Below are positions 2,387 through 64,000 of a stretch of 64,000 nucleotides of DNA, piece after piece. Position 1 is the first letter of the stretch, and each line of letters opens with the position of its first letter. Location of the stretch: positions 47,605 to 111,604 of the forward strand of contig JAIKYE010000041.1 of assembly GCA_024683455.1 (NCBI GenBank). The letters are read 5' to 3'. The stretch comes from Bacteroidaceae bacterium. Its GTDB lineage: Bacteria > Bacteroidota > Bacteroidia > Bacteroidales > Bacteroidaceae. The translations under genes were made by a program, and so were the position numbers. The notes beneath the pieces were generated by a model, which saw nothing but the letters and a program-made list of their open reading frames with translations, ran no database searches and was not told where the DNA came from.

Positions 2387-2416
2387 CAAATATATAACCC
2401 ATTATATTAAAGAGAT

Positions 2417-3658: not shown

Positions 3659-3672
3659 TTCTCTTTTAAGCA

Positions 3673-4521
3673 TTATTGTTTCTCTAACAGAAGCATACAC
3701 CAGTTTTCGTCAGATTCTTTCTTGACGGGGATAAGGCCATACTTCTTTGCCGCCTCTGTCAGGGAAGGGACATCCTCTGAATAGAAACCGCTTATCAACA
3801 GCATTCCCTTATCATCCAATTTGGAGCAGAATGCCTCTAGATCATTTAAAAGAATATTTCTGTTTATATTGGCAATTATTAAATCAGCCTTACTTGTTTT
3901 CCTAAGAACAGATGCATCTCCCAGTTCTACTAGAACCTGATTGTTGATGCCGTTTAAGAGTAGGTTGTCACGTGTGTTGTCCACGCTCCATTCGTCAATA
4001 TCATAGGCAAATACTCTATTTGCACCTCTCTTAACACACATTATGGACAATATACCTGTACCTGTACCAGCATCAACAATTTTTTTCCCATCAAGGTTCA
4101 TGGATGCCAGTTCGCGCAATATCATCCTTGTAGTTTGGTGGCTGCCTGTCCCAAATGCAAGTTTGGGCGTTATGATAATGTCATATGGAAGGGTAGGGAT
4201 ATCAGTATGTTTGACGTCATGAATAACTATCTGATTGTCTATTATGATAGGATGAAATCCTTCTTCCTCCCACACATCATTCCAGTCTTTGTATTCGGCT
4301 TCAGACTTCTCATAACTTATTTGTATGCCTTGTATAGGAAAGTCCTCTATCGTCAGATTTAATTTTTCAGAATCCAAAAGATTTTGTTGGATATAAGCCG
4401 AAATTCCATTGTCGGATGGAACAAAGCTCTCGAAACCTATTTCAGCCAATGAAGCAGAAAGAACATCGGCATAAGCCTCTATATATGGCTCTATCATGAA
4501 GTTTACCTCGTAGTATTTCAT
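3673..4521 (-). CDS. prmA: ribosomal protein L11 methyltransferase
   Basis: The ORF track starts at a TTG (4533), but the ATG at 4521 gives MKYYEV. It carries the SAM-binding motif VDAGTGTGILS and PrmA-like length and layout. Confidence 0.85.
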   Translation of the reverse strand: MKYYEVNFMIEPYIEAYADVLSASLAEIGFESFVPSDNGISAYIQQNLLDSEKLNLTIEDFPIQGIQISYEKSEAEYKDWNDVWEEEGFHPIIIDNQIVIHDVKHTDIPTLPYDIIITPKLAFGTGSHQTTRMILRELASMNLDGKKIVDAGTGTGILSIMCVKRGANRVFAYDIDEWSVDNTRDNLLLNGINNQVLVELGDASVLRKTSKADLIIANINRNILLNDLEAFCSKLDDKGMLLISGFYSEDVPSLTEAAKKYGLIPVKKESDENWCMLLLEKQ

Positions 4522-4613
4522 AACAAAAGACAAAAATACATATATTTTTATAAATGGGGAAATTTCCTCGCCAAATTAGGTAAAATCCTTTTGGCTAATT
4601 CGCTGATTAAGGT

Positions 4614-4621
4614 TAACTTTG
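4614..4621 (+). promoter_or_regulatory. Bacteroidetes sigma-A -7 box (TAnnTTTG)
   Basis: TAACTTTG lies 28 nt upstream of the ATG at 4649. Confidence 0.55.
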
Positions 4622-4648
4622 CACTGTAATCATATAAATTATATCGAT

Positions 4649-5728
4649 ATGAAATGGTATATTCTAACACTGCTAATGTTTTTAGGCATAACCATTAATG
4701 TTAATGCCCAGGACATTGATGATGATATGTATTTTGTTTCGAGCAAGAAGAAGGCGGCTAAAAAGGCTTCTTCCAAATCTTCTTCACAGAATTTGGTGCC
4801 TGTTAAGGTTGTTAAGCCTGTTTATGACAACGATGATGCCAATGTTGATTTCCATACAGGACAGTTGCGCGACGTCGATGACTATAACCGTAGGGGAAAT
4901 AGCAACGGGCAGGTTGTAGCCAGACTTGTTAACGATACCTTGTATGTAACCACCCTTGATAGCACCCAACAGCAACAGACTTATGTCTATGGTAATGCTA
5001 ACGATGGAAAGGGCAAATATTATGAAGATGACAATTACTATGAGGATGATTATACTTATGCATATCGCTTAGGTCGTTATCATAGTGTTCATTTCGTTGA
5101 CCCTTGGTATTGGGATTATTGCTATGGTTGGTATGACCCCTGGTATGATCCTTGGTACGGCTGGTATGCTCCTTATTATCGTCACGGCTATTATAGCTGG
5201 TATGACTGGGGATGGGGTTGGCACTATTATCCCAGCTATAGCTGGAGCTATCCTGGGTACCATAACCACTATCCCATATATCATGGAGGCGTATATCACC
5301 ATTCTGTAAATCCTGCCTATAGATATGGTGGTCAGAGTTCGAAGAGCTATTCCAGCAGAGGGAACAGAACTTACAATTCTGTATCAAGAGGCAACAGAAC
5401 CTCTACTGATGGCAGAGGAAATGTAACAAGGGATAGAAACATACGAAACGGTTCCGAACGTTCTGAATCAACAAGAGGCTCACGTAACGGGTACACACCA
5501 CGTACGGACAGGAGCAGCTCGCGTACAGAATCTTCCAGAACATATAATCAGTCTTCCAGAAGTAACGATTCCTATCGCTCTTCCTCATCCTCTTCGCGTA
5601 GTTCTTCATCGGGCGGTGGCTTTGGTGGAGGTAGTTTCGGAGGAGGTTCACGTGGTGGCAGCTTCGGTGGTGGCGGAGGAGGCGGTCGCGGAGGATACAG
5701 TGGTGGCTCTGGTCGTGGAGGAAGATAG
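4649..5728 (+). CDS. secreted low-complexity protein (aromatic DPWY/GWY block, S/R-rich block, Gly/Arg-rich tail), function unknown
   Basis: The ATG at 4649 gives signal peptide MKWYILTLLMFLGITINVNAQ. The TTG at 4619 lies inside the promoter box at 4614..4621. Composition is described in the findings. Confidence 0.6.
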   Translation: MKWYILTLLMFLGITINVNAQDIDDDMYFVSSKKKAAKKASSKSSSQNLVPVKVVKPVYDNDDANVDFHTGQLRDVDDYNRRGNSNGQVVARLVNDTLYVTTLDSTQQQQTYVYGNANDGKGKYYEDDNYYEDDYTYAYRLGRYHSVHFVDPWYWDYCYGWYDPWYDPWYGWYAPYYRHGYYSWYDWGWGWHYYPSYSWSYPGYHNHYPIYHGGVYHHSVNPAYRYGGQSSKSYSSRGNRTYNSVSRGNRTSTDGRGNVTRDRNIRNGSERSESTRGSRNGYTPRTDRSSSRTESSRTYNQSSRSNDSYRSSSSSSRSSSSGGGFGGGSFGGGSRGGSFGGGGGGGRGGYSGGSGRGGR

Positions 5729-42835: not shown

Positions 42836-45361
42836 ATGATTTATCCACAACACTTTGAGCAGAAGATAGGCTTCACGGAGATACGCCAGTTGCTGAACAA
42901 CCATTGTCTGAGCAGCTTAGGACGCAGCCGTGTGGAGCAGATGACGTTCCTGACTAAACATGAGGAGATACGTCTGCTGCATCAGCAGGTTCAAGAGTTC
43001 CGTCGTATTATGGCTGAGGTAACCGAACTGCCCGAGCAGGATTTCTTCGACCTCCGCCCTTCCATCCAACGCATACGCATTGAAGGCGTACACCTGGATG
43101 AAAAGGAACTGCACGACCTGTACCTATCGCTCCGCACCCTGCATTCGTGTGTGTCAATCCTGCGCAACGAGGAAGAGGGCGAGCGTCCCATCTACCCTGC
43201 CCTACAAAAACTGACAGAGGGGGTTTTCACCTTTCACTCCATCACTAAACGGGCTGAACAGATATTGGACCGCTATGGTAGGATTAGTGACAATGCAACA
43301 CCAGAACTGGCCAGCATCAGACATGAACTTCGCAAGCATGAGGGAAGCGTAAGCCGTACACTTAACAAGATACTGAAAGCAGCACAAGCCGAAGGATGGG
43401 TGGACAAGGATGTGGTTCCTACGCTCAGAGACGGACGACTGGTCATACCTGCCGCTCCAGCCATGAAGCGAAAGCTGAAGGGTATCATACACGATGAAAG
43501 TTCAACGGGTAAGACTGTCTTCATAGAACCTGCTGAAGTAGTAGAGGTAAATAATCACATCCGTGAGTTGGAAGCCGAGGAAAAACGCGAGGTTATCCGT
43601 ATCTTAAAGGACTTCACCGAACTATTACGTCCCAACATCCCCGAGCTGGTACGCGGCTACGAGTTTCTGGCCGACGTAGAGTTTGTTCGCGCCAAAGCCC
43701 ATCTGGCAGACCAGATAGGCGGTGTATCACCTCAGATAGAGAAGAATCCGCTTATCGACTGGACCCTCGCCCAACACCCCCTGTTGGCGCTCGCCCTAAA
43801 GAAACAAGGCAAGAAGGTGGTTCCCCTCGAGATAGAGTTGAACAAGAAACAACGCATACTGGTGATCAGCGGACCTAATGCAGGCGGCAAGAGTGTGTGC
43901 CTGAAGACAGTGGGTCTGCTGCAATATATGCTACAATGTGGACTGGCCGTACCCATGGGCGAGAACTCGAAGTGTGGTATCTTTAAGGATATCTTTATTG
44001 ATATTGGCGACGAACAGAGCATAGAGGATGACTTGAGTACCTATAGCAGTCATCTGCTGAATATGAAGAATATGATGCGTGGCTGCAACCCACATAGTCT
44101 CTTGCTTATCGACGAGTTCGGAGGTGGAACAGAACCTACCATCGGCGGTGCAATAGCTGAGGCAGTACTGAAGTGCTTTGTGAAAGATGGTGCCTATGGC
44201 GTAATCACCACACACTATCAGAACCTGAAACATTTTGCAGAGGATACACCGGGTGTGGTGAATGGCGCTATGCTTTACGAACGCCATAGAATGGAAGCCC
44301 TATTCCAACTTCAGATTGGCAATCCTGGCAGTAGCTTCGCCGTAGAGATAGCTCGTAAAATAGGAATCTCAGAGGAAGTAATTGCCGATGCCACAGAAAT
44401 TGTGGGTAAGGATTATGTGAATGCTGACAAATATCTGTTGGATATCACGCGCGACAAGCGCTATTGGGAAGGTAAACGACAGACCATCCACCAGCAGGAG
44501 AAGCAGATGGAAAGCACCATAGATCGGTACGAGAAGGAAATGGCCGAATTGAAGGAGAAACGCAAGGAAATTATCAGAGAGGCCAAGAAACAAGCTGAAC
44601 AGATTCTGCAAGACAGTAACGCCATTGTAGAGAAGACCATCCGTGATATAAAGGAAGCACAAGCCGAGAAGGACCGCACCCGCAAGGCCCGTCAGGAGAT
44701 AGATGATTTCCGTGCCCGTATGGAGGAACAACTGAAGCACGAGCACGACGAGATGATAGAGCGCAAGATACGCCAGATTCAGGAGCGCCGTAAACGCAAA
44801 GAGGAAAGGAAGAAAAACACAGAACTCTCATCCGAAAACACGAAAACAACAGTATACATTAAGCCGACAACCGTTAACGACGAACAGTCAACATTCCAGA
44901 AAGGCGATACGGTTCGCCTGAAGGGGCAGACAACAGTTGGAGTGATAGAAGAAATAAACGGCAAGAAAGCCTCTATTGCATTTGGTATGGTACGCACAAG
45001 AGTGGAACTTTCACGATTGCAGCACGCCACACCCAAGGAAAAGGAAAATCACGCTGTACAGATAATTTCCTTCGTAAGCAAAGAAACACAAAACCAAGTT
45101 CGCGAGAAGCATCTGCATTTCCATCAAGAGATAGATGTCCGAGGCATGCGAGCCGAAGAAGCGCTACAGACCGTTACACATTTTATTGATGATGCTGTAT
45201 TGGTGGGCGCCAACCAAGTCCGTATTCTGCACGGAACAGGATCTGGCATACTACGACAACTGATTCGTCAGTACCTTCAGACGGTACCCAGCGTATCCTC
45301 TGCACATGATGAGCATGTGCAATTTGGTGGAGCGGGTATTACCGTAGTAGAACTATCCTAA
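42836..45361 (+). CDS. mutS2: endonuclease MutS2 (MutS domain plus C-terminal Smr domain)
   Basis: 841 aa. Walker A GPNAGGKS is present, followed by a charged coiled-coil and the Smr motif [11 protein letters not shown]. Confidence 0.95.
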
Positions 45362-47520
45362 ACCTCAACGGTAAAAGTATTTACTGCATCTATCACACGT
45401 TTAACCTGCTCGTCTGTAAAAACAGGAGAGATGGGAAGCGAGAGAATTTCCTTATGAATACGTTCAGAAATACGATACTTTTCATCGTTCCACTCCTTGT
45501 ATGCTTTCTGCAAATGAGGTGGTATGGGGTAATGAATAAACGTCTGTATGTCTTTATCTTTTAGATAGGCAGATAATTCATCACGCATTGAACATCTTAC
45601 AGGATATATGTGATAGACATTCTCTTCTGGATTCTTTGCAACAACGGGCTTAGTAATCAGTGGATTAACAATACCCTTGTCGTACATAGATGCAATCTCA
45701 CGCCTGCGTTCATTATCAACATCCAGAAAAGGAAGTTTGACACACAGGGCTGCAGCTTGTATTTCATCCATGCGGCTGTTATGTCCCTTGTATTCATTGA
45801 CATACTTCTCTGCACTTCCGTAATTGGCCATTGTACGAACAATACGAGCAAGTTCCTCGTCGTTGGTAGTCACGCATCCGGCATCGCCCAAAGCGCCCAG
45901 ATTTTTTCCAGGATAGAAACTGATTCCTGCAGCATCACAGAGGTTTCCAGCCATCTTACCCTTATATCGAGCACCATGTGCTTGTGCCACATCCTCTATC
46001 ACTTTCAGTCCATGCTTTTGGGCAATTGCATTGATAGCATCCATGTCACAAACACGTCCGTATAGATGAACAGGCAAGATGGCGCGGGTCTTTTCTGTAA
46101 TCAAGGGTTCTATAAGCTCAGCATCTATCAGATAGTCATCGATATGAGGTTCACATAGTACAGGCTTCATTCCTGCATATGTAACGGCCAAAATGGTAGC
46201 AATATAGGTGTTGGATGGTACGATTACCTCATCTTCATCCTGCCAGCCCAGTTTCTCCTTGTATGCAAGCAGTATGAGTGACAATGCCTCCAATCCATTA
46301 CCAACAGGAACACAATATTGGGCACCGCAATACTCTGAAAAGAGCTTTGAGAATCGTTCGTTTTCCTTACCTAACAAATACCATCCGGTACGGATAACAC
46401 GTGTTACCTCGCTGCTAAGTTCTGGTTCAAATCGTTCGTTTATCTGTTTCAGACTAAGGTACTTTATGGTCTTACTCTGCGTATTTCGAACATTACCCGT
46501 CATCTTATCTATTTGCGAGTTATGCAAATCCACCTCGTATGTGTCATAGCATACAGCCCTACCGCCAAAGCCTTCTTTCTGGAATATCAGTCCTTCGTTC
46601 AGGAACTTGCCGTCATTCTCGTTGCTAGTACCCATATCCAGATACTCCATCTGTTTATAACGTTCGTTTATCAAATGTTTAAACAGCAAATCCAAAGCAC
46701 CGTATTCCCTACCCTCGTCGCCTGAGGCTATGTATTGTACGTGCGCTACCTGTCGACTCTCAAAGATAACAGTACCTGCAACTATATGATCTTCGTGACG
46801 GACAACATAAACCTTAATATTCTTGGGAAACAAACGCATCAGAAGCAAAATCTCGTGATAAGAGTGAACTGGTTTACTGTTGTGGTGCGTCATTAGCACG
46901 TCCTCCAACAGGTTCCAGAACTCCAACAAGCCAGCCTCGTCATTTTCTATTACATGACCCAGATAGCATCCATGATCTACAGCCTTCTTTGCCTGTCGCA
47001 TACGCAGCGTACGCATCTTAAGCGTATTACGTTGGTTGATAGCTGTGCTTACAAGTCGTCGTTTTAACTGAGCACCAGCACGGAAAAGGGCATATAAGTC
47101 TTCATCACTGGGGATAGCACTATATATATAAGGTATAGGTTTGTAAAAGACCTTTACAGCCTGCATAAAGTCACGATAATAGCATAACACCTCCTGCATA
47201 ATAGAAATTACCTCCATCTGAGTCACCTCGGGCAACACGATAAGACCACCGTATGTAAGTCCCTGATGAGAATATACACATTTAGTATGTTCATCATAAT
47301 TTGCTGGGAAGACAGCAACAAGATCCTTGGTAGTCATATGACTCTCTTTATACTCATCATCCGGCGATACGCCATCATATATCAATAAAGAGCAATCAAA
47401 AAAGCGATCACTATGATAGTCCATAAAATTGCGCTGCAACAGGAATGTGCCGTTCTTGGAACTCTCAACAAACGCATCCCATGTATCTTTCCTATTAATA
47501 GAATAAGGTATAATCGTCAT
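45358..47520 (-). CDS. fusion protein: N-terminal FemABX/GNAT-like acyltransferase-fold domain plus C-terminal DegT/DnrJ/EryC1-type sugar aminotransferase
   Basis: 720 aa. The N-terminal ~340 aa end in [12 protein letters not shown], which resembles the FemABX/GNAT_6 motif GLxxFKxxFGG. The C-terminal ~370 aa carry DegT features including the PLP-lysine motif [16 protein letters not shown]. Confidence 0.75.
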
Positions 47521-47945
47521 TTTGCAGTCAATTCTTTAAATTCATTATAATCATGGATATAATCTTCTGCGCTGTATGGCTCAGATGCCAGACTAACGCA
47601 TGCGGCATCACGTGTAAAGTCATAAAGTTTGCACCACACCAAGGGGGGGATAAGAATTCCCACGTGAGAATCGTTCATCTCAAGAATAATTTTCTGCTCA
47701 CCGTCATCCACCTCCATTTTAAAGCTGCCTCCCAAAGGAAAGATTACCATAGAGCACGTTCTGTGCGCATGGTTTCCACGGCTCAACCCGTCTTTTATGT
47801 TATACGTCCAGAACACACGCTCAATTTTAAAGGGGATATGATTCCTGCATTCCCCAAAAGCCAGTGCTCCACGTTCGTCTGCAATAAGGGGAAGTTCTAT
47901 CAACTTACACCCTTTAGGCATCTTGAACTGTACGTTTGTATCCAT
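47517..47945 (-). CDS. FdtA/WxcM-like cupin (NDP-4-keto-6-deoxyhexose 3,4-ketoisomerase family)
   Basis: The ATG at 47945 (MDTNVQF) lies downstream of the promoter box at 47964..47971. The cupin pattern DERGALAF...RGNHAHR is present. Its stop overlaps the next gene's start as ATGA. Confidence 0.7.
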
Positions 47946-47963
47946 AGTTTCATTATTTTTATG

Positions 47964-47971
47964 CAAAGATA
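47964..47971 (-). promoter_or_regulatory. Bacteroidetes -7 box
   Basis: TATCTTTG on the minus strand lies upstream of the FdtA-like gene. Confidence 0.5.
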
Positions 47972-48096
47972 CGATTAAGTGAGAGGAATACAAAAAAAAA
48001 CATCATTTTTCAATCCCAAACATAAGTATCTTCTGGATTTTATTTCAAAAGTACAAAAAAAATTGCAAAGTACTTGTGATATTCGGAAAAAAGCTA

Positions 48097-48269: not shown

Positions 48270-48341
48270 GGCGCTTTCGTCTAGCGGCTAGGACACATGC
48301 CTCTCACGCATGGAACACGGGTTCGATTCCCGTAGGCGCTA
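48270..48341 (+). tRNA. tRNA-Glu (anticodon CTC)
   Basis: Folded by hand. The acceptor stem is GGCGCTT/AGGCGCT with two G-U pairs. The D-arm is GTCTAGCGGCTAGGAC, the anticodon stem-loop is CATGC-CTCTCAC-GCATG, and the T-arm is ACGGG-TTCGATT-CCCGT. Confidence 0.85.
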
Positions 48342-48344
48342 CTA

Positions 48345-48380
48345 AATGAGACTTCAAGAATTTGTGGTCTCATTTTTCTT
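48345..48380 (+). terminator. terminator of the tRNA-Ser/tRNA-Glu transcript
   Basis: An 8-bp stem AATGAGAC/GTCTCATT is followed by TTTTCTTT. Confidence 0.6.
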
Positions 48381-48471
48381 TACATTATTTACCTCTACGC
48401 TTTTTCAATTTTTCACATCTATACCTTATTATTTTATAATAGAAAAACTTTGTTTGTGTTTCTCTTTTTTG

Positions 48472-48479
48472 TAATTTTG
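48472..48479 (+). promoter_or_regulatory. Bacteroidetes -7 box driving the riboswitch and DASS transcript
   Basis: TGTAATTTTGCACC lies immediately 5' of the riboswitch. Confidence 0.6.
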
Positions 48480-48483
48480 CACC

Positions 48484-48712
48484 CGCAATTGGTTCACCGA
48501 CCCCTAAACAGGGGAATAAATGGAGCTAAGATGGGAATGCAGTGAAATTCTGCGACATTACCCGATGCTGTGAGTCCTTTTATTTGAAGACGGTCGACAT
48601 GCCACTGGAGTCCAACCCATGCGAACCAAGACAGAGATAATGGGTTGAATGTCTCTGGGAAGGCCGCATCGCCTATAAGGATTAAGTCAGAAGACCTGCC
48701 TTTTGCAATACT
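48484..48712 (+). promoter_or_regulatory. cobalamin (B12) riboswitch
   Basis: The conserved core ATGGGAATGCAGTGAAATTCTGCGACATTACCCGATGCTGT matches the AGGGAA..GGTGAAAnTCC..CCCGC..CTGT pattern. GCCACTGG lies at 48601 and GGGAAGGC at 48657. The B12 box AGTCAGAAGACCTGCC lies at 48685..48700. It starts just after the promoter box at 48472. Boundaries are approximate. Confidence 0.9.
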
Positions 48713-48833
48713 ATAAAGCCTGCCTGCGGGATTACGGGTAGAGCCATATCAAACAGAATAACCTAAACTAACCGCCATGTGAGCCATGTGTGTGGTGCAT
48801 TGGTGTGTGTATATGTATTAAATATTAACAGAT

Positions 48834-50342
48834 ATGTTTAAAATCTTTGCTGGTAATCATCTTGTTGAGGCGTATCACCGCCGTAAGAAGGAAAAGCGGA
48901 ACAGCTGCCTCCTCTGCAAGGTAATGAAATTACTCATAGCTATTACTATGGGTATTACACTGTGGACTCTACCCACAGAAACTTTCGGAATAGAGGGTCT
49001 TACCCTTATAGAACAACGTGTAATTGCTCTTTTCTGCTTCGCTACCCTTATGTGGATAACAGAGGCTATCCCATCCTGGACTACCTCTGTGGCAATTATT
49101 GTAGTTCTATTGTTCACATGTAGCGATAGTGCACTGAAATTTTTCATCAACGATCCTGAAGATGTTTTGGGAACCGTTATCTCGCACAAAGCTATTATGG
49201 CCTGCTTTGCCAACCCTATCATCATGCTCTTTATTGGAGGATTCATTCTGGCTATTGCAGCAACAAAAAGTGGATTGGATGTCAAGTTGGCCAAGGTGTT
49301 ACTGAAACCTTTTGGAACGAAATCAGAAAATGTACTTCTGGGATTCCTATTGGTAACAGGTCTTTTTTCAATGTTCCTCAGCAACACCGCCACAGCGGCT
49401 ATGATGCTCACCTTCCTTGCACCTATCTTGAAGTCACTACCCGCTAATGGCAAGGGAAAGATTGCCCTCGCACTGGCTATTCCTATAGGTGCCAACATCG
49501 GAGGTATTGGAACACCTATCGGAACTCCTCCCAACTCCATTGCTTTATCTTACTTGGCCGATCCAAATGGCCTGAACATACAAATTGGATTCGGTCAATG
49601 GATGGCCTTCATGGTTCCCTTTGCATTGCTTCTGCTTTTCATAGCTTGGATTATTCTAAAGACTATGTTCCCCTTTACGCAGAAAAGAATTGAGCTTGAA
49701 ATAGAGGGTGAGACCAAGCATGACTGGCGATCAGTTGTAGTATATGTTACTTTCGCCATTACTGTTCTACTGTGGATGTTTGATAAGAAAACAGGCGTAA
49801 ACTCCAACGTAGTTGCCATGTTGCCCGTTGGTGTATTTTGTACATGCGGCATTATAACACGTAAGGATTTGGAAGAAATCAACTGGTCTGTCCTTTGGAT
49901 GGTTGCAGGTGGTTTCGCCTTGGGTCTTGCGCTTCAAGATAGCCACTTGGCAGAACACCTTATATCTGTTATACCTTTTGGTTCATGGTCACCCCTGCTG
50001 ATGATTTTAGGTAGCGGACTGCTGTGCTATGCTATGGCTAACTTCATTAGCCATACAGCTACAGCAAACTTGCTTTTCCCTATTCTGGCTCTTGCAGGCA
50101 TGTCAACAACAGAAACACTTGCAAACTACGGTGGTGTAAGTACCTTACTTATTGGTGTTGCCCTTGGCTCATCACTGGCAATGATACTACCCATTTCGAC
50201 ACCGCCTAATGCCTTGGCCCATGCCACAGGTTTGATTGAGCAGAAGCAGATGATGCGTGTAGGAATCATCATGGGTATAATAGGTCTTGTATTGGGCTAC
50301 ATCATGCTGATATTCATCGGTAAATCTGGTTTTGTTAGTTAA
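48834..50342 (+). CDS. DASS/SLC13-family anion:Na+ symporter (dicarboxylate or sulfate type)
   Basis: Hairpin-tip motifs FLSNTATAAMM with GTPPN, and FISHTATANLL with STPPN, are present across ~12 TM segments. The ATG at 48834 has an AU-rich upstream region. An internal ATG at 48924 (MKLLIAITMG) is an alternative start. Confidence 0.85.
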   Translation: MFKIFAGNHLVEAYHRRKKEKRNSCLLCKVMKLLIAITMGITLWTLPTETFGIEGLTLIEQRVIALFCFATLMWITEAIPSWTTSVAIIVVLLFTCSDSALKFFINDPEDVLGTVISHKAIMACFANPIIMLFIGGFILAIAATKSGLDVKLAKVLLKPFGTKSENVLLGFLLVTGLFSMFLSNTATAAMMLTFLAPILKSLPANGKGKIALALAIPIGANIGGIGTPIGTPPNSIALSYLADPNGLNIQIGFGQWMAFMVPFALLLLFIAWIILKTMFPFTQKRIELEIEGETKHDWRSVVVYVTFAITVLLWMFDKKTGVNSNVVAMLPVGVFCTCGIITRKDLEEINWSVLWMVAGGFALGLALQDSHLAEHLISVIPFGSWSPLLMILGSGLLCYAMANFISHTATANLLFPILALAGMSTTETLANYGGVSTLLIGVALGSSLAMILPISTPPNALAHATGLIEQKQMMRVGIIMGIIGLVLGYIMLIFIGKSGFVS

Positions 50343-50381
50343 AAACAGTTTCTAACAATCTGCTTATAATATGAAACTAAA

Positions 50382-50416
50382 AATGCCTCAGCTTCAAAGC
50401 TGGGGCATTTTATTTA
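50382..50416. terminator. bidirectional terminator between the DASS gene and gdhA
   Basis: A 12-bp stem AATGCCTCAGCT/AGCTGGGGCATT is followed by TTTATTT and preceded by AAAAA. Confidence 0.75.
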
Positions 50417-50463: not shown

Positions 50464-51804
50464 CTACACAATTCCTTGTGCCATCATTGCTCTGGCAACC
50501 TTCATGAAGCCTGCAATGTTAGCCCCCTTAACATAATTAATGTAACCATCTGGTTCCGTGCCATACTCACAACATTGTTTGTGTATGCCGTGCATAATCT
50601 CATGCAGGCGCTTGTCAACGTCGGCAGCACTCCAAGAAAGGTGCATGGCATTTTGACTCATCTCCAAGCCACTGGTAGCCACACCGCCAGCATTTACAGC
50701 CTTGCCGGGGGCATATAGAATCTTATTCTTGAGGAACAGATCTATGGCATCAGGAGTACAGCCCATATTACTTATTTCACCTACGCAAAGCACTTTGTTG
50801 TCAATCAATTGTTGTGCATCTTCGGCATTCAACTCGTTCTGTGTAGCACAAGGCAGGGCAATATCCACCTTCACCTCCCAAGGTTTCTTGCCTGGATAGA
50901 AGGTTGCACCGGAGAACTCCTCTGCATATGGAGCAACAATATCGTTACCGCTCGCACGAAGCTCCAACATATAGTCTATCTTACTGCCATCAATTCCATT
51001 GGGGTCATAGATATAACCATCAGGACCACTGATTGTCACAACCTTAGCCCCCAACTGTGTTGCCTTAGTGGCAGCGCCCCATGCGACATTGCCAAATCCG
51101 CTAATAGCAACCGTCTTGCCAGCTAATTCTTGGCCGGCCGTCTCCAGCATCTCATTAACAAAGTACAATCCACCAAAACCCGTTGCTTCAGGACGAATCA
51201 ATGAGCCACCATAATCCAATCCTTTACCTGTGAGCACGCCACTGAAATCACGGGTCAGCTTCTTATACAGTCCGAACAAATAGCCAATCTCTCTGGCACC
51301 AACGCCGATATCACCGGCAGGAACGTCTATCTCAGGACCAATGTAACGGTACAATTCACTCATGAAAGCTTGGCAAAAACGTTCAATTTCGGCATCACTT
51401 TTTCCGCGTGGAGAGAAATCACTACCACCCTTTCCGCCACCCATTGGTAGTGTGGTAAGGGCATTCTTGAATGTCTGTTCAAATCCTAAGAACTTAAGGA
51501 TACTTAAGTTTACTGAAGCATGGAAACGCAATCCACCCTTATAAGGACCAATTGCGCTATTAAACTGAACACGGTAGCCGATGTTTACCTGCACCTGTCC
51601 CTTATCATCTACCCAAGGAACACGGAAGGTAATAATACGCTCGGGCTCCACCAGTCGTTCTAATAGTGCTTTACGTTCAAACTCTGGATGTTGGTCATAT
51701 ACATCTTTAATAAAAACCAACACCTCACGAACTGCTTGTAAGTATTCTCTTTCTCCAGGATGACGTCTTTCAAGACGTTGCATAAAATCATTAATATCCA
51801 ACAT
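50464..51804 (-). CDS. gdhA: NADP-specific glutamate dehydrogenase
   Basis: 446 aa. Motif PMGGGKGGSDF and the dinucleotide fold GFGNVAWG are present. Confidence 0.95.
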   Translation of the reverse strand: MLDINDFMQRLERRHPGEREYLQAVREVLVFIKDVYDQHPEFERKALLERLVEPERIITFRVPWVDDKGQVQVNIGYRVQFNSAIGPYKGGLRFHASVNLSILKFLGFEQTFKNALTTLPMGGGKGGSDFSPRGKSDAEIERFCQAFMSELYRYIGPEIDVPAGDIGVGAREIGYLFGLYKKLTRDFSGVLTGKGLDYGGSLIRPEATGFGGLYFVNEMLETAGQELAGKTVAISGFGNVAWGAATKATQLGAKVVTISGPDGYIYDPNGIDGSKIDYMLELRASGNDIVAPYAEEFSGATFYPGKKPWEVKVDIALPCATQNELNAEDAQQLIDNKVLCVGEISNMGCTPDAIDLFLKNKILYAPGKAVNAGGVATSGLEMSQNAMHLSWSAADVDKRLHEIMHGIHKQCCEYGTEPDGYINYVKGANIAGFMKVARAMMAQGIV

Positions 51805-52004: not shown

Positions 52005-53117
52005 TCACAGTTTCTGGTATCCCCAGAAATCTATAATATCCCCCCATGCATCGTTTACCATTTTCACAGTTCGAGAATCATATTTATACATGTTCTTTTT
52101 ATGTCCCTTTTTTAAATTCACATAAGATTCTATCACAAAGCGAGCTTCATCCCAACCAGGAATCTCCAGTTCATGGTAAATGCGCTCTGTAATCTCAAGG
52201 GCATTACGCTCAAACTCTTCAAACTTCACCTCGAACAAATTTCCATCAGGGATATATTTCTTCTGCTCCTGATAAGCATCGAACAACTCTCGGTATACAT
52301 ACAGGATGTTTTGCTCCATCTCCTCAACAGAAATGCTGTTTAACTCCAAAGGAGCACCCGTCTGGGTAAAGAAGGAACGGCAGCTTTCGAACACCGTGTA
52401 AGGGTTGCGGATGAGATAAATAAATTTGGCCTTAGGAAACATCTCCACCAATGTTTTTATTTTACCAGTATGAGGTGGATTTTTGCTTAGATACTGTGCA
52501 TCCTTAACGCCGTATCGGCTATTCCACATACTCACCTTTACAACCTTCATAAACTTATCTTTGAAGTCGGCAATCTCTTCTGGAGTTGCTTTCTTCATGG
52601 TCAGAAAGCGGTCACAATACTCTCTCATATTCTGCGGAAAGAACCAGAAATTGTAATAAGATGCGGGGCAGGTATTCAGAAGAGCGAACTCTTCCTCCTG
52701 TGGAAGATCAGGACTCAGCTCCATCTTATCTGTAGGTCTATTCTTAGGCATAAAAGTGCTAAAAATAGGCTTCAACAGCCATTGCATGGACATCATTAGG
52801 TGAGGAAATACTGTTTGATACGTTGTCGTATAGCCAAAATGAGAATCTTGAGCAAAAATATTATGGACAAAAGTCGTTCCGCTACGCCAATGTCCCAATA
52901 TAAAGACAGGGTCATGTTGCAGAGGGTCATTAGCCAATAGTTTCTGATATTTCCGATCCTGCAGGGGAGCAAAAAGACTAACCACTCTGCAGAGACATCG
53001 GGTTAGCAACATTTTGGAACGTTTATTTGGTGCTACATAACGACTATGCGTTACAGTCTTGAACGTTTTCCAGTCGGCTCCTACCAAAGTATTCACTGGT
53101 AAATCAGAAAAATTCAT
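52005..53117 (-). CDS. PAPS-dependent sulfotransferase family protein
   Basis: 370 aa. It has a 5'-phosphosulfate-binding loop HWRSGTTF and a 3'-phosphate-binding-like segment LIRNPYTVFES. It is the last gene of the cys operon. Confidence 0.75.
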   Translation of the reverse strand: MNFSDLPVNTLVGADWKTFKTVTHSRYVAPNKRSKMLLTRCLCRVVSLFAPLQDRKYQKLLANDPLQHDPVFILGHWRSGTTFVHNIFAQDSHFGYTTTYQTVFPHLMMSMQWLLKPIFSTFMPKNRPTDKMELSPDLPQEEEFALLNTCPASYYNFWFFPQNMREYCDRFLTMKKATPEEIADFKDKFMKVVKVSMWNSRYGVKDAQYLSKNPPHTGKIKTLVEMFPKAKFIYLIRNPYTVFESCRSFFTQTGAPLELNSISVEEMEQNILYVYRELFDAYQEQKKYIPDGNLFEVKFEEFERNALEITERIYHELEIPGWDEARFVIESYVNLKKGHKKNMYKYDSRTVKMVNDAWGDIIDFWGYQKL

Positions 53118-53164
53118 TTCTCAAGTTTGACATTATACATTTAACATAGGCATAAATCAACAAC

Positions 53165-54616
53165 CTAACGCCTAATATGAATCTCCAATCCCTGACGAGA
53201 AAGTTCTTTCACTGCTTTCTCTATTGAATCATAGTGCTCCTCTCCTATTCCAAGTTTCTTCAGGTCGAGCGTGGGAACATCTGCTTGGTTGATATCGTTC
53301 ATCTCATGCGAACGGATTATCATACCCACAGCAGAGGTGTTGTTTGTGATGGGATCGATGAGGATGAAGGCGCCAGTAGCCTTATTCTGCTTGTAGGCAT
53401 CGAAGAAGATTGTCTTGGCCGTGGTAATCCGGACGCAACCTATCTCGTTCAGTTTAAAGTCGGTGCCAAACGACAGCTTCATGGTATTGACGTCCACGCG
53501 GTAAAGAATCTCATCAATTGTGGCACGAGTAGTATTGGTGTTGTGCTTCAGAAAAAACTGCTTGCCGCGGTCCATAGGCTCCTCGTCCATCCATACGAGC
53601 ATAGTCTGGAAGTAGCGACCTATGTTCGGCAGGTTGTCGGGGCGGACAATCATCTCGCCACGACTGATATCAATTTCGTCCTCCAAGGTAACAGTTACAC
53701 TTTGGGGGCAGAAAGCGTAGGTAAGCTCACCTTCATAAGTGACAATGCTCTTTACGCGGCTTTTCTTCATGCTAGGCAGGGCAACAACCTCATCGCCTTT
53801 ATGGATTACGCCGCTGGCAATCTTTCCGCAGAAACCGCGGAAATCTAGGTTTGGACGCAGGACGTACTGAACAGGGAAACGGAAGTCTTGCATGTTGCGA
53901 TCGCGGTCGATTGGCACAGTCTCCAGAAATTGAAGCAATGACGAGCCCTGAAACCATGGCGTGCGATGACTCTTCTCCACCACATTGTCACCATCCAAGG
54001 CAGACAAGGGAATGCACGTTACATCCTCAATGCCCAACTGAGTGGTCAGTGTCAGGTATTCGTTCCTTATCTTTGTAAATACTTCCTCAGAGAAGTTAAC
54101 CAAATCCATTTTATTTACTGCCAGAACAATATGCTTGATTCCTAGGAGGGAAACCAAGAAAGAATGACGGCGCGTCTGCGTGATAACTCCAGAACGGGCA
54201 TCTACCAAGATGATAGCCAGATTAGCCGTACTGCCACCGGTAATCATATTACGTGTGTACTGTTCATGTCCCGGTGTATCAGCGATGATAAACTTACGCT
54301 GATTGGTAGAGAAATAGCGGTACGCCACATCAATGGTAATGCCTTCCTCGCGTTCGGCTTTCAAACCATCCAGCAAGAGGGCATAGTCTATCTGACCAGC
54401 TCCAGCATTTCCGATACGTCTAGAATCTCGCTCCAATGCTTGCAACTGATCTTCGTAAAGTTTCTTGCTATCAAAAAGAAGTCGGCCTATCAGTGTCGAT
54501 TTTCCATCATCAACAGAACCTGCTGTCAAAAGCCTAAGCAAATCCTTCTTCTCGTCGGCATCAAGATAAGCCTTTATATCTAATTTCTTGTCTTCCACGT
54601 TGAACCAAATTTTCAA
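53165..54616 (-). CDS. cysN: sulfate adenylyltransferase subunit 1 (GTPase)
   Basis: G-domain motifs [14 protein letters not shown] and NKMD are present. There is no in-frame ATG upstream of the G1 motif, so a TTG start at 54616 is assumed. Confidence 0.9.
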
Positions 54617-54633
54617 TTCACAATTTTTAACTA

Positions 54634-55545
54634 TTAAAAGTATCCCTCCCTTTTCTTTTGCTCCATGCTAGCTTCCTGATCGAAGTCAATTACTCGGGTT
54701 GTTCTCTCGCTCTTAGTTGTGGTCATCATCTCTTCCACAATCTCTTCAATAGTGGTTGCTTTAGACTCTACGGCACCCGTTAATGGCCAGCAGCCGAGCG
54801 TACGAAAACGAACCATGCGATTACGAATCTTGGGTATCAGCTCTTTGGGCAGACGATTGTCATCGGCCATGATAAGGTTACCATCAATCTCTACACAAGG
54901 ACGTTCCTTTGCATAATATAAGGGTACAATGGGAATATTCTCCAGACGGATATACTGCCAGATGTCTAGCTCAGTCCAATTACTCAGCGGAAAAACACGA
55001 ATACTCTCGCCTTTGTGAACTCTACTGTTGTAAATGTCCCATAGTTCTGGCCGTTGGTTCTTGGGATCCCACTGGTTAAACTGGTCGCGGAAACTGAAAA
55101 TACGCTCCTTGGCACGACTTTTCTCCTCATCCCTGCGAGCACCGCCAAAGGCTGCATCGAACTTATATTTGTTCAACGCATCCAATAGGGCTTTTGTCTT
55201 CATCAGATCGGTATGCACTTTACTTCCGTGCGTAAAGGGTCCCACTCCAGCATTGAATGCCTCCATATTGCTTTCAACTATCAGGTTCCAACCATGCTCT
55301 TTGGCATAACGATCACGAAACTCTATCATTTCACGAAACTTCCATTTAGAATCAATATGCATCAAAGGGAACGGAACCTTGCCTGGAGCAAAAGCTTTTT
55401 CGGCCAAACGCACCATTACACTTGAGTCTTTACCTATACTATAAAGCATGACAGGATTCTCAAACTCGGCAGCCACTTCACGAATGATATGAATGCTCTC
55501 AGCTTCTAGTTCCTGCAAATGCGACAGGCTGTATTCTATAGCCAT
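54634..55545 (-). CDS. cysD: sulfate adenylyltransferase subunit 2
   Basis: 303 aa. The PAPS-reductase-like fold motif YSIGKDSSV is present, and the C-terminal EQKKREGYF is typical of CysD. Confidence 0.95.
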
Positions 55546-55569
55546 AATTCAAAAAATATAAATCCGAAA

Positions 55570-56160
55570 TTAAAAACTATTCAGAATCATCATCACCACC
55601 CTATTTACAGATTCCTCTAACGCAAGGCGGCTGGTATCAATCTCCAATGCAGGGTTCTCTGGTATCTCGAAGGGTGCACTAATACCAGTAAAGTTTTTCA
55701 CCTCACCCATTCTAGCTCTAGCATATAGACCTTTAACATCACGACGCTCACATTCTTCAAGGGGAGTTGAGACAAAAACATCCTTAAAGTCCTCCTCGCC
55801 AATGATATTACGGGCTAACATTCGCAAATCGTTGGTAGGGCTGACAAAACAGGCAAGTGTTACAATCCCCGTCTGTACAAATAATTTTCCTATTTCTGCT
55901 ATCCTACGGATATTCTCCATTCTGTCTTCGGCAGAAAAACCGAGATTGCTATTGATGCCAGCTCTGATATTATCACCATCCAAAATCCTACAGAGTATGC
56001 CACGTTTGTGTAGTTCACGCTCAACCCCCATAGCAATGGTACTCTTGCCGCTTCCACTCAGGCCAGTGAACCAAACCATTAGGCCATGCTGGTGTAGAAG
56101 TTTCTCCTTATCAGAACGAGACATCATCTGATCATATATAGGATATATGTTTTCAGCCAT
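55570..56160 (-). CDS. cysC: adenylyl-sulfate (APS) kinase
   Basis: 196 aa. P-loop GLSGSGKST and LDGDNIR are present. Confidence 0.95.
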   Translation of the reverse strand: MAENIYPIYDQMMSRSDKEKLLHQHGLMVWFTGLSGSGKSTIAMGVERELHKRGILCRILDGDNIRAGINSNLGFSAEDRMENIRRIAEIGKLFVQTGIVTLACFVSPTNDLRMLARNIIGEEDFKDVFVSTPLEECERRDVKGLYARARMGEVKNFTGISAPFEIPENPALEIDTSRLALEESVNRVVMMILNSF

Positions 56161-56166
56161 AATTTA

Positions 56167-57747
56167 TTAACAATAAAACAGAGGTATCAAGAATACGCTC
56201 ATCAGGAATACTATGATATTAAGTGGGAGTCCCACCTTGACAAAGTCCTTAAACTTGTAGCCTCCGACGCCTTGCACAATCAGATTTGTCTGATACCCAA
56301 TAGGGGTGCTAAAGGCTGCACTGGCAGCAAAACAGATGCAAACAAAGAAAGGTGTCGGATCCATCCCCAATTTATTACTAATGGACACTGCCAATGGAAA
56401 TGCTAAAGCTGCGGCAGCATTGTTAGTGATTACCTCAGTAAAGATGTTGGTTATGACAAACAATGCCGATAACATAATGTAGATACCGTTCTCACTATGT
56501 CGGGCTTGCTCAGCCAAGGCAATAATGTAATCGCCAATATAATCTGCCAAACCACTATTTATCATTCCTTTACTAATACCAAAGGCACAGGCAATGGTAA
56601 TAAGAACGTCCCAAGAAATCAATTTGGTGTATTTACGAGGCGAAAACATCTTAGTCCATGCCATCAACACTGTGGTTATGGCAGCAAAAAAGAACATATC
56701 GAGCTTCACCTTCAATCCCCACTCCTGAACAAAAGGCAGTTCACCTACCGTAGCTCCTAATACCATTAGGGCTACCAGCACCAACGCAAAGTTTTTTTTA
56801 TGCATACTTAATTCTGGTTCTGCCCCAACCACGTTCAACATCCAAAATACACGACTCTCACCCCACGTGGGCATAAAAGTATCATCAGCTTCTAGAACAA
56901 GGGTATCATGCTTAGTAAGTGGTTCATTAACCCAGTCACCTGTCAGGAGCGTACCTCCTCGTTTAATACACTTCACATTGGCTCCATAATGACGATAAAA
57001 ATCAAACTCTCGCAACGTCTTTCCCAAACCAGGAAAACGAGTGCTTGGCATTGCCTCCACATATACAACACCTGAGTCTACGTTTTCTTCCTCCTCATTA
57101 AGCGCGGTCTCACGTTTATCTGGTAGCAAATAGCGGGATATCATTATTAAGTAAAACAGACCTGTCAATGCAATAAAGACTCCTACCTTAGAAAGTTCAA
57201 ACATACCCAATGTATGTCCATTCGTTACAATATTGGCTTCTATAGCATCGTCAATCAGTCCGTCTAAAACAAGATTGGTACTGGTTCCAATCAAAGTACA
57301 GACACCACCCAGGATGGTTGCATAACTTAAGGGGATAAGGAATTTTGTTGGAGGCATTTTCATCTTCTTAGCCCAGTTCTTAATCATGGGTCCAAAGATT
57401 ACTACCACAGGTGTATTATTCAAAAAGGCTGATATGAAAGATATCAGCGGAAGGAAATTCATTAATGCCTTGGTCAACGAAACATTCTTGGATGGTAACA
57501 TGTAATAGATAATACGTTCTAGAACACCACTTTTGCGGACTCCCTCGCTAACAAGATACAGCAGAGCCACCGTTATCATACCTTTACTACAGAAGCCCTC
57601 CAAAGCTTCCTTAGGCTGCAAGATTCCAACGCATAGGAGCGAAACAACAACCGAGAACAAAATTAGTCCCGGCCTCAACTTGTCTGTCATCAGTGCCCAT
57701 AGCATCAGCACAATGACACACGCCATAAAAATGATTTCAAATGACAT
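56167..57747 (-). CDS. SLC13/DASS-superfamily permease with two central TrkA-C (RCK_C) domains; candidate sulfate importer
   Basis: Two transporter halves flank a ~150-aa soluble insert (VEAMPSTRFPGLGKTLREF...TLVLEADD). The ATG at 57747 is the likely start, because the track start at 57786 is a TTG upstream of the promoter box. It is the first gene of the cys operon. Confidence 0.8.
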   Translation of the reverse strand: MSFEIIFMACVIVLMLWALMTDKLRPGLILFSVVVSLLCVGILQPKEALEGFCSKGMITVALLYLVSEGVRKSGVLERIIYYMLPSKNVSLTKALMNFLPLISFISAFLNNTPVVVIFGPMIKNWAKKMKMPPTKFLIPLSYATILGGVCTLIGTSTNLVLDGLIDDAIEANIVTNGHTLGMFELSKVGVFIALTGLFYLIMISRYLLPDKRETALNEEEENVDSGVVYVEAMPSTRFPGLGKTLREFDFYRHYGANVKCIKRGGTLLTGDWVNEPLTKHDTLVLEADDTFMPTWGESRVFWMLNVVGAEPELSMHKKNFALVLVALMVLGATVGELPFVQEWGLKVKLDMFFFAAITTVLMAWTKMFSPRKYTKLISWDVLITIACAFGISKGMINSGLADYIGDYIIALAEQARHSENGIYIMLSALFVITNIFTEVITNNAAAALAFPLAVSISNKLGMDPTPFFVCICFAASAAFSTPIGYQTNLIVQGVGGYKFKDFVKVGLPLNIIVFLMSVFLIPLFYC

Positions 57748-57755
57748 ATTGACGG

Positions 57756-57763
57756 CAAATTTA
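57756..57763 (-). promoter_or_regulatory. Bacteroidetes -7 box of the sulfation operon
   Basis: TAAATTTG on the minus strand has a TTTG about 20 nt further upstream. It sits only ~8 nt from the ATG at 57747, which implies a near-leaderless mRNA. Confidence 0.45.
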
Positions 57764-57794
57764 CGAAAAATCGAGAATAAGGCCAAATGAAATC

Positions 57795-63944: not shown

Positions 63945-64000
63945 TTGCGGGGGTCCGACTCGAACGGGCGACCTCCAGGTTATGAGCCTGGCGAGCTACC
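63945..64000 (-). tRNA. tRNA-Met (anticodon CAT), initiator-like, 3' portion only; the 5' end lies outside the window
   Basis: The reverse complement reads GGTAGCTCGCCAGG-CTCATAA-CCTGG AGGTC GCCCG-TTCGAGT-CGGAC CCCCGCA A. The 3' acceptor strand plus discriminator CCCCGCAA is identical to that of E. coli tRNA-fMet. Confidence 0.8.

Follow-up and report, generated by a model that had tools for sequence, protein, structure and literature searches.

A class-I cobalamin riboswitch precedes a DASS/SLC13-family carrier gene in Bacteroidales

The 64,000-nucleotide stretch of DNA analysed here (the window; an uncultured Bacteroidaceae bacterium of gut or rumen, GenBank assembly GCA_024683455.1, contig JAIKYE010000041.1) contains a cobalamin riboswitch followed by a gene for a DASS/SLC13-family anion:sodium symporter. 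The RNA is a genuine, ordinary class-I riboswitch of the adenosylcobalamin (AdoCbl) type, with predicted ligand binding, and the protein looks like an ordinary DASS member; the novelty lies in their pairing, which is conserved across Bacteroidaceae, Muribaculaceae and other Bacteroidales. The reading that we favour, at somewhat short of an even chance, is that the riboswitch shuts off a carboxylate-importing DASS carrier when B12 is high, and that the carrier would serve a low-B12 response around the idle mutase/succinyl-CoA/2-oxoglutarate node. The regulatory part of this reading is much more certain than the part that concerns the substrate.

A first-pass annotation of this DNA had called the aptamer by eye and proposed an Rfam search of the region. 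Rfam cmscan bore out the call, matching RF00174 (Cobalamin) at 48473..48717 on the + strand with 77.9 bits against a gathering score of 31.5 (E = 1.7e-17). The match spans the full model (positions 1-189 of 189), and the B12 box, the conserved core (including GGGAA) and the P6 extension are all present in the aptamer, with every motif that the annotation had quoted lying where it had been placed. The only other Rfam matches in the window are three tRNAs. The elements of the unit are:

48449..48479, + strand: Bacteroidetes-type promoter, from the sequence (-33 TTTG at 48449-48452, 19-nt spacer, -7 box TAATTTTG at 48472-48479)
48473..48717, + strand: class-I aptamer with P6 extension, from the RF00174 score; kept in relatives
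~48523-48543, + strand: GGGAATGCAGTGAAATTCTGC core motif, from the sequence
48559-48564, + strand: L5 loop TACCCG (UACCCG in the RNA), with CCCG at 48561-48564
48592-48599, + strand: GCCACTGG core motif, aligning to the RF00174 consensus
48648-48655, + strand: GGGAAGGC core motif, P6 extension (GCCACUG...GGGAAGGC), aligning to the same consensus
48685-48700, + strand: B12 box AGTCAGAAGACCTGCC, aligning to the same consensus
48720..48741, + strand: P13 regulatory hairpin, 7-bp stem (48720-48726 with 48735-48741), loop L13 CGGGAUUA (48727-48734), -11.9 kcal/mol
48742..48833, + strand: 92-nt spacer from P13 to the start codon, its first 36 nt C-rich and G-poor (11 C, 3 G), followed by a GU-rich tract
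48834..50342, + strand: gene for the DASS/SLC13-family anion:sodium symporter, 502 aa, from TIGR00785, PF00939, PF03600 and the fold model
50380..50411, both strands: bidirectional intrinsic terminator common to the DASS gene and the convergent gdhA, 14-bp stem, -21 kcal/mol, z = -6.6

The product of the downstream gene is a DASS-family member, for which the sequence and the fold model predict sodium-coupled anion transport. It scores 247.5 bits against TIGR00785 'dass' (cutoff 198.6), 146 bits against PF00939 and 148.9 bits against PF03600 (CitMHS), and the NCBI record with the identical protein is named 'MAG: SLC13 family permease [Bacteroidaceae bacterium]', MAG denoting a metagenome-assembled genome. 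For the AlphaFold2 model (predicted local distance difference test score 73.3, predicted template modelling score 0.70), the top 39 Foldseek matches are all DASS proteins, the first being VcINDY (2.3e-16), with Pho90 at 4.5e-16; among PDB sequences the best match is Pho90 (129.7 bits), and VcINDY scores 125 bits. The motifs SNT, GTPPN, SHT and STPPN, which had been noted earlier as SNT/SHT and GTPPN/STPPN hairpin motifs, are indeed present in the 502-aa sequence. Among 81 orthologues, the HPin SNT (183-185) and TPPN (231-234) are invariant, as is STPPN (455-459); the HPout motif is SHT in the window's clade and SNT or SNS in others, so that one of the two signature asparagines is replaced. The start codon is at 48834, and not at 48924 as the first-pass annotation had it, since orthologues of 56-92% identity keep the first 30 residues (MFKxFxGxxLVExYH...) at the protein level. 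With this start the leader past the aptamer is 116 nt long, and not ~130 to 220 nt as had been estimated.

The pairing recurs widely. We scanned with Rfam, as had been suggested, 80 orthologous loci from one-genome-per-species GTDB contigs (56-73% identity). RF00174 (70-111 bits) lies directly upstream of the carrier gene, on the same strand, in 12 of them (L001, L011, L020, L024, L025, L030, L032, L035, L036, L037, L049 and L069). It also does so in all seven closer relatives (72-92% identity, found by protein), whose flanking genes all differ. An nhmmer profile built from the aptamers reproduced the Rfam calls on L001-L090 exactly and found four further riboswitch-DASS loci among 80 metagenome loci (L091, L113, L114, L150); two more (L171, L172) came to light through a MetE-like partner gene described below, for a total of about 26. 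In a neighbour-joining tree, the riboswitch-bearing carriers form one main clade, which covers Bacteroidaceae, Muribaculaceae and 'Porphyromonadaceae' MAGs, and two small groups. Four clade members without a switch (L021, L023, L031, L059) show no riboswitch remnants in an Rfam search at E <= 1, which speaks against a decayed riboswitch in these loci.

The riboswitch lies on the + strand downstream of its promoter, and the DASS gene is the next gene on that strand. The -7 box TAATTTTG abuts the aptamer and is the sole TAnnTTTG within 48300-48900; of 23 related leaders, 22 have the same box where the aptamer begins. TTTG and TAnnTTTG are the consensus boxes of Bacteroides promoters, and we infer that the transcript starts at this promoter, which abuts P1. 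The strong promoter box reported directly before the aptamer is accordingly real, being a conserved box of the TAnnTTTG type. A sigma-70-like TTCACA-17-TATAAT at 48412-48440 (+), with 11/12 matches and about 32 nt upstream of the -7 box, was dropped as a promoter because Bacteroidetes use TTTG/TAnnTTTG, the type that relatives keep where the aptamer begins; in this phylum the match probably plays no part, but it would matter if the leader were tried in E. coli. The transcript is bordered by:

48344..48375, + strand: hairpin and U-run at the end of the tRNA-Ser(GCU)/tRNA-Glu(CUC) unit (-13.4 kcal/mol, z = -3.8, 0/200 shuffles as stable)
50464-51804, - strand: gdhA, convergent with the DASS gene and the next gene after the terminator

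Because the upstream tRNA unit ends in a hairpin and U-run, the riboswitch transcript is a separate unit. At its other end, the 14-bp hairpin at 50380-50411 has an A-run on one flank and a T-run (U-run) on the other and is called as a terminator on both strands, in agreement with the earlier description of the DASS gene as the sole gene between the riboswitch and a bidirectional terminator.

The expression platform had been described as having no recognisable element. It does have one, the P13 hairpin at 48720-48741, which starts two bases past the Rfam match and whose 5' arm is the 'second CCTGCC' (48719-48724) of the first-pass annotation. In known cobalamin riboswitches, P13 and L13 are the element that forms the regulatory kissing loop, and in the window the CGGG of L13 is complementary to the CCCG of L5. 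Across 16 distinct leaders, 103 of the 112 cells of the P13 stem are paired, a count reached by 0/2000 shuffles, with 2-6 kinds of standard pair at each of the five inner positions; variants such as CCUG/CGGG, UACCA/UGGUA, AUCU/AGAU, UACCC/GGGUA and GUCUG/CGGAC all retain pairing. The loop L13 has the consensus CG(N)GGAYU, which complements the CCCG that is invariant in L5, and this complementarity is conserved, not covarying.

The spacer between P13 and the start codon is conserved in neither sequence nor length (66-172 nt) among relatives of 77-92% protein identity, and measures 66-440 nt in the window and most other relatives. Its stability is the same as that of shuffles (z = -0.21), and the minimum free energy (MFE) of the whole leader is uninformative (z = -0.23). 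Given the variability among close relatives and the spacer's z-score, no conserved structured platform was found in these 92 nt. A terminator scan of 48717-48834 found no intrinsic terminator (GC-rich hairpin and U-run) between aptamer and ATG, as the first-pass annotation had also concluded. That annotation had named an independent transcription start within the leader as a circumstance that would count against B12 control; we found no consensus internal TAnnTTTG promoter in the window's spacer, nor in any of 23 spacers. The GU-rich tract of the spacer contains a minimal ATG-TGA open reading frame (ORF; 48778-48783) and an 11-codon ORF (MCVVHWCVYMY, 48787-48822), and in the MFE fold CCAUAU just past P13 pairs with AUAUG of the start codon; neither the mini-ORFs nor this pairing are conserved in relatives.

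Relatives with compact leaders (L011, L020, L087) have the ATG 15-20 nt past P13, which is the classical arrangement for blocking initiation. We propose that B12 binding would lock the L5-L13 kissing loop and so turn the carrier off when B12 is plentiful. In the compact relatives, the kissing loop would block initiation at a start codon only 15-20 nt away; in the window, repression would probably proceed via premature (Rho-type) termination or mRNA decay and not via an intrinsic terminator. The OFF polarity is suggested by the company that the carrier gene keeps, because it is co-transcribed with a BtuB-like receptor gene (L037), lies directly after cbiD (L115) and adjoins riboswitch-TonB-receptor units (L036, L055, L124, L151, L170). 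These same associations in L037 and L115, and the recurrence of the window's L13 loop in the leader of a TonB-dependent BtuB-type receptor (L036, 3278-3501), led us to reject an ON-switch by which the carrier would be made with B12 and import succinate for propionate formation.

Genes next to the carrier in related loci bear on what it transports. Many loci have an OprP-like, DcaP-like or DUF2490 outer-membrane protein directly downstream of DASS. Among the riboswitch units, L011, L020 and L025 have genes for phosphate-porin-like outer-membrane proteins, and L089 has a DUF2490 protein partner; matches to PF07396 (phosphate-selective-porin-like) after DASS, in L011, L020, L025, L031 and L059, are weak (34-43 bits). 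The order accC-BCCP-pccB (BCCP, biotin carboxyl carrier protein) follows DASS in L049 and L069. In the L087 riboswitch unit (1996-5509; 80% DASS identity), a PycB/OadA/transcarboxylase-5S-like carboxyltransferase gene is followed after 86 nt by DASS; this carboxyltransferase is divergent (551 aa, without a biotinyl domain, 229 bits against cutoffs of at least 402). Parts of biotin enzymes thus recur in B12-controlled units.

Another partner, present in seven riboswitch units (L032, L035, L036, L113, L150, L171, L172), is a short gene of the MetE family that lies 11-37 nt past DASS; DASS is also followed by a MetE-like gene in L039, which is truncated at its 5' end, and in L115, whose DASS gene has no riboswitch. 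These genes lie at:

L032, 2908-3999: MetE-like gene
L035, 4528-5619: MetE-like gene
L036, 2010-3095: MetE-like gene
L039, 1374-2456: MetE-like gene
L113, 5528-6616: MetE-like gene
L115, 2411-3511: MetE-like gene
L150, 5527-6618: MetE-like gene
L171, 6001-7110: MetE-like gene
L172, 6001-7092: MetE-like gene

The encoded protein has about 361 aa and is homologous over its full length to the short 'B12-independent methionine synthases' (PDB 1ypx, 195 bits). It has lost all four canonical zinc ligands of 1ypx (H to Y, C to S, E to P, C to T): MHICRGN becomes IYLSGGD, FFLEYD becomes FFLPFD and PQCGF becomes PRTGF, and the DAHSP motif is kept. Its 607 homologues all come from Muribaculaceae- or Bacteroides-type MAGs and are named 'hypothetical' or 'methionine synthase II family'. 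Judging by these replacements, the zinc-less partner may be something other than a methionine synthase.

Other neighbours belong to B12 metabolism. In L037, DASS and a BtuB-like TonB receptor gene (TIGR01779 as best match) form one operon, in L115 DASS begins 50 nt after cbiD, and in L171 it adjoins a corrinoid adenosyltransferase gene (BtuR), which a hairpin and T-run split from the operon. DASS is also adjacent to separate riboswitch-TonB-receptor units in L036, L055, L124, L151 and L170, and in several loci without a DASS switch of their own it stands back-to-back with, or just upstream of, a TonB-receptor riboswitch. The separate TonB-receptor cobalamin riboswitches near DASS are:

L036, 3278-3501
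L055, 2631-2821, - strand
L115, 4053-4235
L124, 5350-5597
L151, 3758-3934, - strand
L170, 3707-3888, - strand

Their proximity suggests that the carrier gene tends toward B12-uptake neighbourhoods.

Orthologues without a riboswitch have another set of neighbours. They occur as korA-korB-DASS in Prevotella and as korA-korB-gdhA-DASS-DASS2-DcaP-like porin in Cryptobacteroides and others, these korAB-type clusters falling in two separate clades. Some have metY directly upstream or gdhA directly downstream. The metY gene (O-acetylhomoserine sulfhydrylase, TIGR01326, 570 bits) immediately precedes DASS, in the same orientation, in L022, L045 and L062, and gdhA adjoins DASS in L081 as well as in the window.

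In the reading that we favour, the carrier most likely couples to sodium the import of a C4-C6 di- or tricarboxylate, of the succinate/2-oxoglutarate type, and in many relatives would work with an outer-membrane anion porin. Methylmalonyl-CoA mutase requires B12, without which succinate accumulates, and B12 supply shifts rumen and gut Bacteroidales between succinate and propionate output. The carrier would be made only at B12 scarcity, when methylmalonyl-CoA mutase (succinyl-CoA to propionate) and the methionine synthase MetH idle, and would be part of a low-B12 response that re-routes or re-supplies dicarboxylate and glutamate-family metabolism. A carboxylate substrate is suggested because the HPin SNT, the TPPN and the STPPN align with succinate-binding residues of VcINDY, the Vibrio cholerae sodium/succinate symporter. 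VcINDY is about 27% identical to the window carrier over residues 67-492 and shares its fold (Foldseek 2.3e-16, TM 0.58-0.66); its HPin is nearly identical to the carrier's SNTATAAMM (SMFLSNTATAAMM vs SMWISNTATAAMM), and both (S/T)PPN segments are kept. The two differ in HPout, where the asparagine of VcINDY (N378, a ligand of Na2 and of the substrate) is a histidine in the window carrier's clade (SHT), and in a conserved basic N-terminal extension of about 30 residues in the window carrier.

A di- or tricarboxylate is further favoured because riboswitch-less orthologues adjoin korAB, gdhA and DcaP-like porin genes. Relatedly, when the succinate user Phascolarctobacterium faecium is fed succinate, its SLC13 carriers, korAB and gdh are raised together (PMC7568257). 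This ties SLC13/DASS carriers, both in the genome and in transcription, to 2-oxoacid:ferredoxin oxidoreductase and glutamate dehydrogenase, the same trio as in the korAB-gdhA-DASS clusters of Bacteroidales; however, the P. faecium carrier feeds a B12-dependent succinate-to-propionate pathway (PMC7568257), whereas the window carrier is predicted to be made without B12.

As to direction, the retained sodium-symport motifs and the porin, BtuB-like receptor and MetE-like partners argue for uptake rather than export. A succinate exporter is disfavoured on the kept sodium-site motifs, the porin partners and what would be unfavourable energetics for a sodium symporter. The first-pass annotation had proposed a dicarboxylate carrier for succinate handling under B12 limitation. 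The dicarboxylate part of that proposal fits the VcINDY-like motifs and the korAB/gdhA/porin clusters, and succinate handling at low B12 is plausible; the partners and sodium motifs point to uptake and not to the export of succinate.

Several observations weigh against the favoured reading. The carrier matches the phosphate carrier Pho90 in sequence and fold as well as it matches VcINDY, and its clade shares with Pho90 the HPout motif SHT. In nine loci DASS is followed by a MetE-like gene and in three it is preceded by metY, and a corrinoid adenosyltransferase gene and cbiD are among its neighbours. Most orthologues have no riboswitch, and with no remnants in the four searched this indicates that B12 control is not intrinsic to the carrier's function. 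In the window, the spacer between P13 and the ATG is unconserved and without significant structure, and so reveals no route by which P13 would control the gene. Among the B12-responsive genes of Xylanibacter ruminicola KHP1 there is no DASS gene, the presence of an orthologue in that strain not being established, and two Dcu-type C4-dicarboxylate carriers of KHP1 rise with B12 (PMC11575231). A further point is aimed at export: a sodium symporter would be thermodynamically ill-suited to exporting succinate into a succinate-rich medium.

After carboxylate import, the reading that survives best is methionine-linked uptake, although we consider it unlikely. In MetH-dependent bacteria such as these, a lack of B12 would amount mainly to a lack of methionine, and the carrier would import an anionic precursor or co-substrate for a B12-independent methionine or homocysteine route involving the MetE-like protein or MetY. 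Supporting this possibility, the short MetE-family gene lies 11-37 nt after DASS in its nine loci and metY directly before DASS in L022, L045 and L062. Expression data from X. ruminicola KHP1 point the same way. This strain has four cobalamin riboswitches, none near propionate-pathway genes (PMC11575231), and the genes most strongly repressed by B12 are the cbi/TonB-receptor operon and metY (log2 fold change -5.22; PMC11575231 supplement). The fall of metY with B12 is 37-fold, as strong as that of the cbi/TonB-receptor operon, and is passed over in the paper (PMC11575231 Table S6). It would fit a shortage of methionine when B12 is low, or a B12-independent synthesis in which MetY makes methionine directly from methanethiol, and the KHP1 data make methionine shortage a major consequence of B12 lack in this group. 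On the other hand, the MetE-like partner lacks all four zinc ligands and is maybe no methionine synthase, there is no methionine gene beside DASS in the window and most riboswitch loci, and the korAB and gdhA contexts are unexplained by this route. Also, we know of no DASS member that carries an intermediate of the methionine pathway.

A variant that draws on the same partners, and to which we give a somewhat smaller chance, is that in Muribaculaceae-type genomes the DASS carrier, the anion porin and the zinc-less MetE-fold protein make up a B12-starvation module not described before. Such a module would take up and convert an anionic metabolite that replaces a B12-dependent step, whether methionine formation or the succinyl-CoA/propionate branch.

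A corrinoid-supply role is less probable still. The carrier would import something needed to build or finish corrinoids, for example a small anionic precursor, or cobalt in an anionic complex with a carboxylate, and would fall in the classical 'cobalt or precursor transporter' class. Transport of a corrinoid precursor was among the alternatives named in the first-pass annotation. Such a role would account for the BtuB-like TonB receptor in the DASS operon of L037, the position 50 nt past cbiD in L115, the corrinoid adenosyltransferase gene beside DASS in L171 and the riboswitch-TonB-receptor units beside it in L036, L055, L087, L124, L151 and L170. The carrier's match to PF03600 CitMHS (148.9 bits) is also compatible with it, as this family includes metal-citrate carriers. 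However, to our knowledge no DASS member is a carrier of cobalt or of a corrinoid precursor, and the riboswitch-less orthologues cluster with korAB and gdhA, not with cob/cbi genes. The hairpin and T-run in L171 separate BtuR from the operon, and among the window ORFs scanned we found neither cobalamin synthesis or salvage genes nor any other B12-related gene.

Transport of an inorganic oxyanion (phosphate, sulfate or thiosulfate) instead of a carboxylate is improbable; sulfate was another alternative named in the first-pass annotation. The yeast low-affinity phosphate transporter Pho90 (PDB 8r33) is the carrier's best PDB sequence match (129.7 bits), has the same SHT in HPout and is of equal Foldseek significance; PF07396 genes follow DASS in L011, L020, L025, L031 and L059; and the window has a sulfotransferase-cysN-cysD-cysC cluster at a distance of 1.7 kb. 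Yet VcINDY is nearly equal (125 bits, Foldseek 2.3e-16), and Pho90 itself, unlike the window carrier, has SNV in HPin and an SPX domain. SHT is not diagnostic of a phosphate carrier, since HPout alternates among SNT, SNS and SHT in orthologues from the same korAB contexts, which occur in both SNS and SHT clades. The porin Pfam matches are weak (34-43 bits), and B12 has no evident link to phosphate or sulfate supply. We rejected a connection to the cysDNC-sulfotransferase cluster on account of its place on the other strand, beyond gdhA, and of its having its own SLC13/CitMHS permease, only ~20% identical to the carrier.

That the riboswitch is real but does not control DASS, owing to a hidden promoter in the spacer, a relic aptamer or a short terminated RNA, is very improbable: the 92-nt spacer is unconserved and without significant structure, and neither an intrinsic terminator nor a classical sequestering helix was found in the leader, but aptamer, P13 and promoter box are kept before DASS in about 26 loci with differing flanks, none of 23 spacers has a TAnnTTTG, compact versions have the ATG 15-20 nt past P13, and the riboswitch, where absent, is cleanly absent and not decayed.

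The catalogued cobalamin regulon comprises four classes of genes, namely B12 synthesis, transport of B12 or its precursors, cobalt transport and isozymes of B12-dependent enzymes, and that survey names no DASS or dicarboxylate carrier, in its text or its supplements, among the genes controlled by cobalamin (PMC3766115). The DASS cargo lies outside all four classes (PMC3766115), which agrees with the earlier view of it as a non-standard member. We found no published report of a B12-riboswitch-DASS association in the full-text literature, within its incomplete journal coverage. The class-I riboswitches of Bacteroides btuB and E. coli btuB have the same RF00174 architecture as the window's (P6 extension, B12 box, L5 CCCG and an L5-complementary P13 loop), and OFF logic is presumably common to them. 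They differ from it in that the window's cargo is a DASS carrier and not a corrinoid receptor or transporter, a cob/cbi gene, a cobalt transporter or a metE/nrd isozyme, and in that the window's start codon lies 92 nt beyond P13, without a conserved platform.

No B12-sensing element has so far been tied to the carbon side of the succinate/propionate switch. The conserved pairing offers a cheaply testable connection between a vitamin sensor and the transport of anions or organic acids, in bacteria that are dominant in gut and rumen. It also draws attention to a widespread but uncharacterised DASS subfamily of Bacteroidales, and to the zinc-less MetE homologue, which annotation pipelines call a methionine synthase. 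Should the carrier move succinate or 2-oxoglutarate, vitamin cross-feeding would be linked to organic-acid cross-feeding; if it moves something else, the B12 regulon would gain a new transporter class. If the B12-starvation module exists, the supply of B12 would directly determine the organic acids that the dominant Bacteroidales of gut and rumen import or release.

Elsewhere in the window, 52005-57786 on the - strand is a sulfate-activation/sulfotransferase cluster with genes for a sulfotransferase (PF13469), cysN, cysD, cysC and a second SLC13/CitMHS-type permease:

56167-57786, - strand: second SLC13/CitMHS-type permease, ~20% identical to the riboswitch-controlled carrier

We take this cluster to resemble the Bacteroides 3'-phosphoadenosine-5'-phosphosulfate/sulfotransferase clusters that have been linked to steroid sulfonation. 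At 45358-47993 (-), and pointing away from the tRNA/riboswitch region, are an FdtA/WxcM-like gene and a gene for a 720-aa protein in which a FemAB/GNAT-like acyltransferase domain is fused to a DegT/DnrJ/EryC1 sugar aminotransferase; together, their sequences point to amino-sugar modification for a surface glycan. A partial tRNA at 63945-64000 (-), cut by the window end, scores 29.1 bits, just at its gathering score.

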